64,000 bases of DNA, taken from NCBI RefSeq assembly GCF_058153355.1, contig NZ_CM177019.1; one strand, written 5' to 3'. How positions within the stretch are numbered: position 1 is the stretch's first letter; each line of letters begins with the position of its first letter. Position numbers: made by a program. Shown one piece after another: positions 40,201-43,200 of this stretch.

Positions 40201-43200
40201 GAGATTGCCACGGAACAGGTCGGGCAGTTGATATAGCAAAAACAGAGCAGTGGGGGAGAGTTGTTGAGAAAGAGTGCGGAAGATGTAAAGGCGTCGGTTA
40301 TTCAAGGATGCCAGCAAGCGCAGCATATCGCGCTGTAACGATGCTAATCCCAAACCTTACTCAACCCACCTGGTCACGCACTGTTAAGCCGCTGTATGAC
40401 GCCCTGGTGGTGCAATGCCACAAAGAAGAGTCAATCGCAGACAACATTTTGAATGCGGTCACACGTTAGCAGCATGATTGCCACGGATGGCAACATATTA
40501 ACGGCATGATATTGACTTTTTGAATAAAGTTGGGTAAATTTGACTCAAGAATGGCAGATTTATATCCGTTCACATTCTTTCGGTTTTTTACCCACCTCAT
40601 CTTTAAGTTCTAAGCGCACTGACATGCGCATCATAAACTCGAGAGCACATAGGAATAGAGCCTGCATAACGGTTTCGGGATTTTTTATTTGGGTCAGTCG
40701 TATAAAGGTCATTACGGAAGGCTGTTAACCTTCTTATCGTGGTTCGAGTCCACGCTGTCCCGCCAAACATGCTGGTTTAGCTCCAATGGTAGAGCAGTCG
40801 CCTTGTAAGCGAATGGGTAGCGGTTCAAGTCCGTTAACCAGCACCATAACTGAGCCGTAGCCACTGGCTATCCTGAATTCATCAGTGACAGTTACGCTGC
40901 GGCCTTCTTTTTCCCTTCCCAATATAAGAACTACGCCATCCGTTATTTGCGGAGGTGAGGCTATGAAATCCATGGACAAAATATCAACGGGCATTGCCTA
41001 CGGCACCTCCGCAGGCAGTGCCGGCTACTGGTTTTTACAGTGGCTTGATCAGGTCAGTCCATCACAGTGGGCTGCGATTGGTGTGCTGGGAAGTCTGGCG
41101 CTGGGCTTTCTGACTTATCTGACGAATCTGTATTTCAAAATAAGAGAAGATAAGCGTAAGGCTGCGAGAGGTGAATAATGTCGCCATCATTACGCAAGGC
41201 TGTTGCAGTTGCTATTGGTGGCGGGGCTGTTGCTATAGCATCTGTGTTAATCACTGGCCCAGGTGGTAACGATGGTCTGGAAGGTGTCAGCTACATACCA
41301 TACAAAGATATCATTGGTGTATGGACTGTATGTCACGGACACACCGGAAAAGACATCATGCCTGGTAAAACGTATACCGAAGCAGAATGCAAAGCTCTCC
41401 TGAATAAAGACCTTGCCACTGTCGCCAGACAAATTAACCCGTACATCAAAGTCGATATACCGGAAACAACGCGCGGCGCTCTTTACTCGTTCGTTTACAA
41501 CGTGGGCGCTGGCAATTTCAGAACATCGACGCTTCTTCGCAAAATAAACCAGGGCGATATCAAAGGCGCATGTGACCAGCTACGTCGCTGGACATATGCT
41601 GGCGGTAAGCAATGGAAAGGGCTGATGACCCGTCGTGAGATTGAGCGTGAAGTCTGTTTGTGGGGGCAGCAATGAGCAGAGTCACCGCGATTATCTCCGC
41701 TCTGGTTATCTGCATCATCGTCTGCCTGTCATGGGCTGTTAATCATTACCGTGATAACGCCATTACCTACAAAGAGCAGCGCGACAAAAACGCAAGAGAA
41801 CTGAAGCTGGCGAACGCAACCATTACTGACATGCAGCAGCGCCAGCGTGCTGCTGATGCACTCGATGCTAAATACACGAAGGAGTTAGCTGATGCGAAAG
41901 CTGAAAATGATGCTCTTCGGCGCAAGCTTGATAATGGTGGTCGGGTGCTCGTCAAAGGAAAATGCCCTGTGCCATCCTCAGCCGAAACCTCCAGCGCCTC
42001 CGGCATGGGCAATGATGCCACCGTCGAACTCTCTCCAGTTGCTGGACGAAACGTTCTCGGTATCCGGGACGGAATCATCAGCGACCAGACAGCATTGAGA
42101 ATGCTTCAGGAGTACATCAGGACTCAGTGCCTGAAATAAATTTTTTTTGCAAATCACAAAGTCCATTTAATGAGCCTCGCACTTGCGGGGCTTTTATATG
42201 TCCGCAGTAAACCGCGCATCGCAGCGCGTATAAACCCCGAGTCTTTCAGAAAGCTGAGCCTGAGAATTGCCGTATATGGTGGCGACCATCTCGGGGACGG
42301 CTTTTCTGTGCGAACAGGCTCATCTTTCTAAAAGGTAAAGACGCCATGAACAAATCATTAACCGTTCTTCCTTCTGGCAAATACCCGACCATGAGCAGTC
42401 TTGAGATGGTGGATTACATTAATGCTGATCGGGAATCAAAAGCAGAGGCGGAGGGGCTTGTGTTCCCCTGTAAGAAATATCGCAAACTCGAACACCGCAG
42501 TTTCATGAAGAAAGTACCCAGGGGCCTCGGGGATGCAGCTGCAAAATTTTTTGCAACTGATACCTATATCAACGGAACAGGTGGTGTTGTGGAGAGGGAT
42601 ATTTGCAATTTTCCCAAGCGTGAAGCTTGCCTCATGGCAATGAGCTACAGCTATGAGCTTCAGGCGCAGGTGTATGACCACATGACGGAGCTTGAGGGCG
42701 GGAAGGACATTAACCTCCTCGATTTCTCTGGCCTGACCGATATGGCAATCAGCGAAATGCAAAACCGTGTCGCGGCTGCTGAGAAGTTCTCATTTGAAAT
42801 GCACGGTCAAGCAGGTAGCGCTCTCATGACTCGTCGGAAGAAAGAGAAGAAGGCCATTAAAAAGGCTGAGCAGCTTGTGAAGGATCTGATTCAGTTCAAG
42901 CTATGTGACATGGGGGATTTCCCTGATGGTAAACCAGCATGACTCCGATTGATTTCATACATAAAAATGTAACAACCGAGTTAATAAAGCTTGGGTACGA
43001 CCAGAACGCGGCTATGACTGGCGCTGACATGGCGGTGGAGCATTACCGCCGTTGTTCACAAGCCAGCAGAAAAGGCCGAGTTTTCGATGACTGCCTGTAC
43101 ATTGCAAAACAGTGGGCAGGTAGGCAGAAAAGGGAAAAAATGACAACCTGAGAGCTACTTTCACAACGGCTCTTCATTACAAAGCCCATCTACTGGTGGG

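Follow-up and report, generated by a model that had tools for sequence, protein, structure and literature searches.

Two tRNA genes lie in tandem in a prophage within the window, by which we mean the whole stretch of 64,000 nucleotides of contig NZ_CM177019.1 that was analysed. The first, at 40691-40765, encodes a 75-nt tRNA-Asn with the anticodon GUU and the second, at 40771-40846, a 76-nt tRNA-Thr with the anticodon UGU; in both, the CCA end is encoded. ARAGORN called exactly these two tRNA genes, Asn(gtt) and Thr(tgt), across the 64-kb window, both on the plus strand, and each scored well over threshold, with neither falling below it. A search of the whole window with the Rfam model RF00005 yielded 55.3 bits (E = 3.4e-9) for tRNA-Asn and 61.5 bits (E = 6.9e-11) for tRNA-Thr. 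Both scores are about twice the gathering score of 29, and the matches are far beyond chance. The original prediction had derived the positions of two tRNA genes, the anticodons GUU (Asn) and UGU (Thr) and the CCA ends from hand folding, and all of these are reproduced by ARAGORN and Rfam and by the sequences themselves.

The anticodon loops of 7 nt, CUGUUAA in tRNA-Asn and CUUGUAA in tRNA-Thr, contain U33 and a purine at position 37, both D-loops bear the GG of G18-G19, and the T-loops of the two tRNAs read UUCGAGU and UUCAAGU. The identity elements of E. coli AsnRS are G34, U35 and U36 together with G73, those of E. coli ThrRS are G1-C72, C2-G71, G35 and U36. When the sequences were read against this list, the full set was found in the respective tRNA, including the discriminator G73 in tRNA-Asn as well as G1-C72 and C2-G71, next to A73, in tRNA-Thr. 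Non-canonical pairs occur at U4-U69 in the acceptor stem and at 13:22 of tRNA-Asn and at G27-A43 of tRNA-Thr, which also has C14 at the position usually taken by A14. The calls by two predictors, the compensatory changes described below, the loop and CCA features and the identity elements characterize both molecules as elongator tRNAs of the bacterial type.

The mismatch in the acceptor stem of tRNA-Asn had previously been read as a hint at a pseudogene. The mismatch is real, with U4 opposite U69 being non-canonical in the Rfam alignment, but the pseudogene suggestion is not supported by a comparison of 127 viral-contig regions, which comprised 12 distinct Asn and 16 Thr variants. U4-U69 was kept in 10 of the 12 distinct tRNA-Asn variants, across three diverged lineages, and around it the pairs 5:68, 6:67, 7:66, 28:42 and 29:41 changed by compensatory double substitutions. 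In both tRNAs, such substitutions affected the acceptor stem and the anticodon stem, with six pairs changed on both sides in Asn and four in Thr. Covariation amounted to 0.188 among the 12 Asn variants compared to 0.057 in shuffles, and to 0.132 among the 16 Thr variants compared to 0.079; in either case none of 500 shuffles reached the observed value, and all slid controls were exceeded as well. Accumulating, non-conserved changes that break the structure, as in a pseudogene, were not found in tRNA-Asn. By these alignments, U4-U69 is a trait conserved within the family rather than a mark of decay. It is hence extremely improbable that one or both genes are non-functional pseudogenes hitch-hiking between conserved recombination boundaries. 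Such a relic would fit the oddities U4-U69 in Asn and C14 and G27-A43 in Thr, the visibly degenerate second tRNA of phage L/ST64T with its 4-nt deletion in the anticodon arm, and the conservation, even in lambda, of the blocks that bound the cassette. However, all four helices of both tRNAs are maintained via compensatory changes, the odd features are themselves invariant among lineages, both Rfam scores are roughly double the gathering score, and T-loop, G18-G19, CCA and identity elements are all intact.

Upstream, the plus strand encodes a lambda-type late antiterminator, Q (39846-40469; 207 aa from the ATG at 39846), which homologous records list as "antitermination protein" and which is identical to lambda Q in 204 of 207 residues (98.6%), compared to 14.5% identity to phage 21 Q. 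It is followed on the same strand by the late promoter PR' with a lambda-type qut (40512-40540; -35 TTGACT, 17-nt spacer, -10 TAAATT). Two bases differ from lambda PR', and the -10-like pause element reads AAGAAT instead of the AACGAT of lambda. Transcription from PR' would start at about 40547. In an alignment to lambda, the plus-strand region 40547-40637 corresponds to the 6S RNA as a shorter late leader with a different middle, being identical up to about 40555 and then unrelated until tR' is reached at its 3' arm; E. coli FDAARGOS_943 has the same leader variant. The lambda-type intrinsic terminator tR' (40638-40690, plus strand) is composed of a hairpin (40638-40679) and the U-tract ATTTTTTATTT (40680-40690), which ends one base ahead of tRNA-Asn. 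Its 3' arm and its U-tract match those of lambda exactly, and the hairpin is predicted to be weakened because the 5' arm has been replaced: the computed folding energies, which are not termination efficiencies, are -9.0 kcal/mol here, -22.5 in lambda and -17.4 in phage 21 and Sf6, whose records carry a terminator annotation at the equivalent position. The tRNA genes had been placed directly downstream of PR'. The slot is indeed the same, but tRNA-Asn begins about 144 nt past the inferred start, immediately after the U-tract of tR'. A consensus scan of 40300-41100 returned PR' and no second sigma-70-like site; a separate tRNA promoter was rejected on this basis, a non-consensus promoter being outside the reach of the scan.

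Downstream of tRNA-Thr, a conserved boundary block (40854-40915, plus strand) forms a second terminator-like structure, a 50-nt hairpin (40854-40903) followed by CUUCUUUUUCCC. The hairpin has a computed energy, again not a termination efficiency, of -23.4 kcal/mol (z = -4.2), and none of 200 shuffles was equally stable. The block is common to lambda, 21, Sf6 and mEp506 and is too conserved for a covariation test to be informative; the U-run after the hairpin occurs only with the phage-21-type lysis module, and the phage L record has a terminator annotated at the equivalent site. A simple terminator scan of 40300-41100 gave zero matches, as the two terminator hairpins are long and compound; they were recognized instead from their folding and from homologous terminators annotated elsewhere.

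The lysis genes that follow on the plus strand are of the phage 21 type. They encode a class II holin/antiholin (pinholin) of the S type (40963-41178; 97.2% identical to S21-71, named after the phage 21 annotation), a SAR endolysin of the R type (41178-41675; 94.5% identical to phage 21 R) and an Rz-like i-spanin (41672-42139; 63.2% identical to that of phage 21), in whose gene an Rz1-like ORF with a lipoprotein-like N-terminus is embedded (about 41892-42098, plus strand). The 116 bp between tRNA-Thr and the holin start at 40963 hold no separate ORF, and the ORF list contains no toxin gene. This agrees with the original prediction, which had noted the absence of toxin genes and had assigned the pair to the slot between late promoter and lysis cassette where some lambdoid phages carry tRNA or toxin genes. 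By sequence, the locus can be described as a mosaic of lambda Q and PR'/qut, a variant leader, a weakened tR', the tRNAs, the hairpin and a phage-21 lysis cassette. The prophage further carries IS insertions, one of them within the tail operon, and phage production may therefore be lost altogether.

Sequence comparison identifies the cassette as one that is already known, and the earlier observation as correct but ordinary, the pair having been on record since the sequencing of phage 21. The pair carries a tRNA-Asn/tRNA-Thr annotation in phage 21, Sf6, SfI, mEp506, Kapi1 and BTP1, and in hundreds of prophages of E. coli. Among 5,426 complete E. coli genomes, about 350 have the cassette and only 13 the exact combination of lambda Q, tRNAs and S21, counted where 80% or more of the query was covered. 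The original prediction did not recognize the pair as that described for phage 21, Sf6, SfI and others. In phage 21 (OL657228, AJ237660), the 156-bp pair matches that in the window at 100% identity (compared to AJ237660) and likewise follows the tR' U-tract ahead of the S21/R21 lysis genes. The window thus has both the pair identity and the location between tR' and holin on the late-operon strand that characterize the phage-21-type cassette. Phage 21, however, has Q21, its own PR'/QBE, a 48-nt leader and a strong terminator, whereas the window combines lambda Q and lambda PR'/qut with a leader of about 144 nt and a weakened lambda-type tR'. The late region of phage 21 was reportedly described by Guo, Kainz and Roberts in 1991.

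Sf6, SfI, HK446, mEp506, Kapi1, BTP1 and other P22-/lambda-like phages carry the pair in this slot as well, with 97-100% identity, and mEp506 and HK446 likewise pair the tRNAs with a lambda-type Q; unlike the window, this group has lambda-type S/R downstream and the full lambda leader. P1 tRNA1/tRNA2 are also a tandem of Asn(GUU) and Thr(UGU), with a 2-nt spacer and a Thr gene that is about 80% identical. The P1 context differs, as the pair is located downstream of predicted ban promoters/operators and not in a late leader, and its Asn gene, from another lineage, has a fully paired acceptor stem and a UAAUC site like that of the host. In Stx phages of the 933W type, ileZ-argN-argO occupy the same slot from PR'/tR' to the lysis genes, upstream of stx, and are expressed in a Q-dependent manner. 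These tRNAs differ in being other isoacceptors for truly rare codons (AUA, AGA/AGG) with toxin genes alongside, and the window has no toxin. The ileX/stx case is cited in the paper on SfI (PMC3636060). The 163-bp filler that lambda carries between the same flanks was considered as a decayed tRNA pair; this was rejected, since 285 of 2000 shuffles reached its global alignment score and Rfam gave zero tRNA-like matches even at E = 10. The cassette appears as a sharply bounded module whose limits, the tR' U-tract and the hairpin block, are also present in lambda, and these limits would explain how it moves between phages that differ in their Q and lysis modules.

We consider it highly probable that this known phage-21-type cassette provides working elongator tRNAs which are transcribed from PR' past tR', excised from the transcript and add to the supply of late infection. 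The mode of expression of the cassette has been stated as unknown (PMC8022706). As the tRNAs have no promoter of their own, polymerase would start at the constitutive PR' and, without Q, mostly halt at tR'. With lambda-type Q bound at qut, transcription would continue past tR', both tRNAs and the hairpin beyond them to the genes for lysis and morphogenesis. Host RNase P would then cut the 5' ends of the tRNAs out of the leader of the late mRNA, RNase E and exonucleases would generate the 3' ends, and no CCA addition would be needed because CCA is encoded. After charging by the host synthetases, the predicted outcome is more of both tRNA species during bulk virion protein synthesis. The tRNA structures might instead serve mainly as RNase P/RNase E signals by which the qut/tR' leader is removed and the lysis mRNA acquires its 5' end near the conserved hairpin, and their placement exactly between the leader and this hairpin, which precedes the holin ribosome-binding site, would suit such a role. 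We regard this as very improbable: in lambda the same flanks enclose an unrelated filler without tRNA-like structure, so processing is not required there, and a purely structural role leaves the conservation of anticodons and synthetase identity elements unexplained.

The codon analysis used mechanical ORF calls because positions 28000-52000 of the window have no annotated twin, their coverage by any complete E. coli genome being at most 51%. ACA occurs at 11.8 per 1000 in the late genes compared to 8.0 in the host flank, a 1.5-fold excess that is not significant (p = 0.06-0.11); the same ACA bias has been reported for SfI (PMC3636060). The codon is much more strongly enriched, at 19.1 per 1000 (p = 3e-10), in the early and accessory genes of the prophage, the early ones being located upstream of PR'. 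Asn codons are not enriched (42.5 compared to 48.3 per 1000). The capsid gene of phage L has been reported to favour AAC strongly; no such preference was seen here, with 11 AAC and 6 AAT in the putative capsid gene, which was assigned from the feature list of an annotated homologue and has no Pfam match. Codon supplementation is thus weakly supported for ACA and not supported for Asn. The benefit we favour, without regarding it as settled, is maintenance of the tRNA pool, that is, decoding of ACA by the Thr tRNA and a safeguard against depletion.

The strong ACA enrichment in early and accessory genes would also suit expression of the pair chiefly in the lysogen, where transcripts from the constitutive PR' would pass a leaky tR' and the downstream hairpin and U-run would halt polymerase ahead of the lysis genes, the host gaining Thr(UGU) and Asn(GUU) tRNAs. 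The low predicted stability of tR' compared to lambda fits this idea, as does the very stable hairpin followed by CUUCUUUUU that adjoins the 3' side of tRNA-Thr. Still, cargo of this kind for lysogenic conversion is unlikely to be the main role, as phage 21 and Sf6 keep the same tRNAs behind a strong tR' and lambda-type lysis modules have the downstream hairpin without the U-run. The layout is therefore a feature of this mosaic rather than a property of the cassette. With the weakened tR' and the second hairpin and U-run after the tRNAs, some tRNA expression in the lysogen without that of the lysis genes is plausible alongside the late supply we propose.

The two tRNAs are, at the same time, two of the three main target isoacceptors of the PARIS nuclease AriB, which cleaves tRNA-Lys(UUU) as primary, Thr(UGU) as a prime and Asn(GUU) as a secondary target (PMC12409363). 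In both phage tRNAs, U39 of the AriB site UAAUC/N is absent: the site is UAAUCC in host asnT and UAAUCA in host thrU, compared to UAACCU (C39, U41) in the window Asn and UAAGCG (G39, G41) in the window Thr. These differences from the host at positions 39 and 41 resemble those in the resistant tRNA set with which T5 neutralizes PARIS and whose Thr(UGU) and Asn(GUU) read UAAGCA and UAAGUU (PMC12409363). It is possible, at rather low probability, that phage tRNAs of this kind sustain late translation once the host copies are cut. We would go as far, with equal reserve, as to view the lambdoid Asn/Thr pair and the P1 tandem as one counter-defence module of temperate phages which supplies replacement tRNAs without U39. 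Its adversaries may be Toprim tRNases of the AriB kind from competing P2/P4 elements, and possibly also P2 Old. This reading is our own and speculative, and the literature searched held no published link of the pair to PARIS or other tRNases. It would suit the restriction by PARIS of lambda, which lacks the cassette (PMC9122126), the tandem Asn-Thr pair on P1, and a tRNA-Asn that codon usage does not account for, here or in SfI (PMC3636060). However, the virulent T5 has more than 20 tRNAs including a resistant tRNA-Lys(UUU) that is required for escape (PMC12409363), and tRNA-Lys is absent from the window and from all 127 related arrays. The substitutions at 39 and 41 are weak evidence because they are expected in any diverged tRNA, by chance or descent; the window tRNA-Thr is of a widespread foreign type with G39, and P1 Asn retains UAAUC. 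In our sample, invariance at positions 39-40 of Asn is uninformative, as the search pattern had fixed them. Contacts beyond the anticodon arm also count for resistance, and resistance to AriB is therefore not readable from the sequence.

Overall, a cassette that was already known has been annotated correctly, with little that is new. Three small points may still be of use, the first two being that the acceptor mismatch of tRNA-Asn is a family trait and that the limits of the module may account for exchange of the cassette among phages. If true, the counter-defence reading would explain why tRNA-Asn is retained, for which codon usage gives no reason. The third point, the overlap with the targets of PARIS, makes it experimentally simple to ask why temperate lambdoid phages keep these two tRNAs.

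In the 64-kb window, ARAGORN predicted two tRNA genes and no others, both on the + strand: a tRNA-Asn with anticodon GTT (40691-40765) and a tRNA-Thr with anticodon TGT (40771-40846). The Rfam tRNA model matched both, with 55.3 bits (window-wide E 3.4e-9) and 61.5 bits (window-wide E 6.9e-11), respectively, where the gathering score is 29. The two genes with GUU and UGU anticodons that had been folded by hand were thus recovered at the same positions by both tools, and, as had been proposed, each encodes CCA at its 3' end. They are situated, again as described, between the late promoter PR' (40512-40540) and a lysis cassette, which is of the phage 21 type. 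The holin start codon follows tRNA-Thr after only 116 bp, and because this gap contains no separate ORF, the reported lack of toxin genes in this place holds as well.

The acceptor-stem mismatch, which had led to the suggestion that the first tRNA could be a pseudogene, is real: in the Rfam alignment, U4 of tRNA-Asn stands opposite U69. Further non-canonical pairs are present at 13:22 in tRNA-Asn and at G27-A43 in tRNA-Thr. We compared the genes across 127 regions with the Asn core, taken from viral contigs, in which tRNAs were predicted anew. tRNA-Asn fell into three lineages with the acceptor stems GGGUCAG/CUGUCCC, GGGUCGA/UCGUCCC and GGGUAGG/CCUUCCC. Between them, double compensatory changes occurred at the acceptor pairs 5:68, 6:67 and 7:66 and the anticodon-stem pairs 28:42 and 29:41, while U4 opposite U69 was retained in all three. 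The mismatch was found in 10 of the 12 distinct tRNA-Asn variants, with a wobble pair in rare single variants instead. Six pairs were altered on both sides among these 12 variants, and the covariation score was 0.188 compared to 0.057 in shuffles (0/500 reached 0.188; slid controls ≤0.058); as positions 30-31 and 39-40 of tRNA-Asn were prescribed by the search pattern, invariance there is uninformative. For tRNA-Thr, four pairs were altered on both sides (covariation 0.132 compared to 0.079; reached by 0/500 shuffles), the G27-A43 mismatch occurred in 16/16 variants and C14 in all except one. Both sequences also bear the identity elements by which E. coli AsnRS and ThrRS would be expected to recognize their tRNAs. 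Given the covariation in both tRNAs, the conserved mismatch and these identity elements, the sequence comparison does not support a pseudogene.

The tRNA-Asn/tRNA-Thr pair has been described before, and many public records annotate it correctly. The 156-bp pair of phage 21 is 100% identical to that of the window, and the phage 21 record lists, in order, the pR' -35/-10, the Q binding site (QBE), the start site, a terminator, tRNA-Asn, tRNA-Thr and antiholin/holin. The Sf6 record is annotated in the same way with the remark 'similar to phage 21', and annotations of the pair also exist for SfI, mEp506, Kapi1, BTP1, SPN9CC, Oslo and, by PGAP, for E. coli prophages. In SfI it lies downstream of Q, where the authors cite Sf6, ST64T, PS3 and phage 21 (PMC3636060), and a study on epsilon34 records it in P22-like prophages (PMC2629481). 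Among 5,426 complete E. coli genomes, 346-368 carry the tRNA pair, and only 13 have the combination of lambda Q, tRNAs and phage 21 type holin (S21) at ≥80% query coverage.

By sequence comparison, the surroundings of the tRNAs combine modules of lambda and of phage 21 in a mosaic, set in a host flank corresponding to the E. coli gyrA-nrdAB-yfaL region (98.2% identity). The late antiterminator Q (39846-40469, +) is 98.6% identical to the lambda protein and unrelated to Q21. PR', with the hexamers TTGACT and TAAATT and a 17-nt spacer, differs from its lambda counterpart by two bases and is the only promoter-like site within 40300-41100. The transcribed leader agrees with lambda over roughly its first 10 bases and then diverges, so that the late leader (40556-40679) is unlike lambda 6S RNA; the match resumes in the terminator tR', with its 3' arm and its U-tract (…CCTGCATAACGGTTTCGGG ATTTTTTATTT), which ends at 40690, one base ahead of tRNA-Asn. 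Because this junction replaces the 5' arm, the predicted tR' hairpin reaches only -9.0 kcal/mol, whereas that of lambda reaches -22.5 and those of phage 21 and Sf6 -17.4. The identical leader variant, with about 46 nt inserted in addition, is present in E. coli FDAARGOS_943. In E. coli EC187792 (L132 942-1433) and four similar genomes, the leader between Q and tRNA-Asn harbors an HNH endonuclease gene, which recalls the HNH genes interspersed among the tRNA genes of T5.

Downstream of tRNA-Thr lies a block (window 40854-40915, lambda 44950-45010) that lambda, 21, Sf6 and mEp506 have conserved, and within it a 50-nt hairpin (40854-40903; -23.4 kcal/mol, z = -4.2) is common to all lambdoid phages compared. 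In the window the hairpin is followed by CUUCUUUUU, and such a U-run occurs only where the phage 21 type lysis module comes next, here a pinholin (97.2% identical), a SAR endolysin (94.5%) and a spanin pair. The hairpin may terminate transcription, serve as a processing site or stabilize the 5' end of the lysis mRNA. Judging from the late regions of lambda and phage 21, transcription would start at PR' and terminate at tR' without Q; with Q, it would read through past the tRNAs into the late genes, and host tRNA-processing enzymes would free the two tRNAs. The weak tR' together with the downstream hairpin and U-run could permit some tRNA expression in the lysogen without expression of the lysis genes.

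The interval from the tR' U-tract to the hairpin block appears to be exchangeable. In lambda, 163 bp of other DNA occupy precisely the slot that elsewhere holds 159 bp of tRNAs, with both flanks conserved. We rejected the idea that this filler is a decayed tRNA pair: 285/2000 shuffles aligned equally well, and it gave no tRNA-like Rfam match. Apart from Asn-Thr (95 regions), we recovered Asn alone (10), Asn-Phe(GAA)-Thr-Arg(UCU) (7, including a Klebsiella phage, L007 801-1117), Asn-Gly(UCC) (4), Asn-Thr-Arg (3) and Asn-Met(CAU), also given as Asn-Met/Ile(CAU) (3). The slot therefore accumulates different tRNAs; Asn leads every array recovered, in a sampling that was anchored on Asn. The second tRNA of Salmonella phage L (L006 881-952; also in ST160 and ST-32), labeled tRNA-Leu(TAA) in the record, has 72 nt and a C at position 33; its anticodon arm is shortened by a 4-nt deletion, and it seems to be a degenerate tRNA that derives from the Thr gene.

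Codon supplementation as the purpose of the pair is only weakly supported. ACA occurs at 11.8 per 1000 codons in late genes and 8.0 in the host flank (p = 0.06-0.11), and at 19.1 in early genes (p = 3e-10), whose counts stem from mechanical ORF calls that may include spurious ORFs; these genes, the site of the strong bias, are upstream of PR'. Asn codons amount to 42.5, 48.6 and 48.3 per 1000 in late genes, early genes and host flank, respectively, and the putative capsid gene uses AAC 11 and AAT 6 times. The SfI authors likewise observed an ACA bias and left the Asn tRNA without explanation (PMC3636060). The early/accessory genes (16300-40469) are also very rich in other codons rare in E. coli (AGA 17.5, AGG 12.5 and ATA 14.0 per 1000); tRNAs that read AGA/AGG or AUA are absent from the prophage.

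Elsewhere in the prophage, Rfam matches to isrK (70.6 bits) and C4 antisense RNA (75.9 bits) at 37340-37528 (+) are directly followed by two antirepressor-like ORFs (37532-38257 and 38326-39054; homologs 'P22AR C-terminal domain' and 'Ant'), which together resemble a secondary immunity module of the P1/P7 c4-ant type within the nin region. Further matches were sRNA-Xcc1 (63.8 bits, 18367-18456, -), close to the integrase end, and the lambda cIII thermoregulator (88.5 bits, 23671-23729, -). IS transposase ORFs form two pairs of 100% identity, at 14651-15997 and 25279-26625 and at 27399-28970 and 56896-58467, the latter with homologs annotated as IS66-like ISCro1. As one IS66-type copy lies within the late (tail) operon, the prophage is probably defective.

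The pair might also act in counter-defense, with the phage tRNAs replacing the targets of AriB, the tRNA-cutting nuclease of the host defense system PARIS, which restricts lambda (PMC9122126). AriB cuts between positions 40 and 41 (U36-A-A-U39-C40|N41), and cleavage is abolished by U39A and lowered by A41C (PMC12409363). The isoacceptors kept by lambdoid phages, Asn(GUU) and Thr(UGU), are two of the three main AriB targets, and P1 likewise has a tandem Asn-Thr pair. At positions 36-41, host asnT and thrU read UAAUCC and UAAUCA, whereas the window tRNAs read UAACCU (Asn) and UAAGCG (Thr) and both lack U39; the corresponding sequences are UAAGUU, UAAGCA and UAAACC in T5 Asn(GUU), Thr(UGU) and Lys(UUU), and UAAUCA and UAAGCA in P1 Asn(GUU) and Thr(UGU). 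However, positions 39 and 41 can be expected to differ in any diverged tRNA, the Thr gene is of a foreign type that is widespread, and resistance to AriB rests on more than the anticodon arm. Moreover, T5 neutralizes PARIS with its versions of all three tRNAs (Asn, Thr, Lys) together and needed its tRNA-Lys for escape (PMC12409363), while tRNA-Lys is absent from the window and from every related array. A published link between this pair and PARIS was not found in the literature searched, and we regard this explanation as rather unlikely. This possible counter-defense role is the one idea here that merits an experiment.
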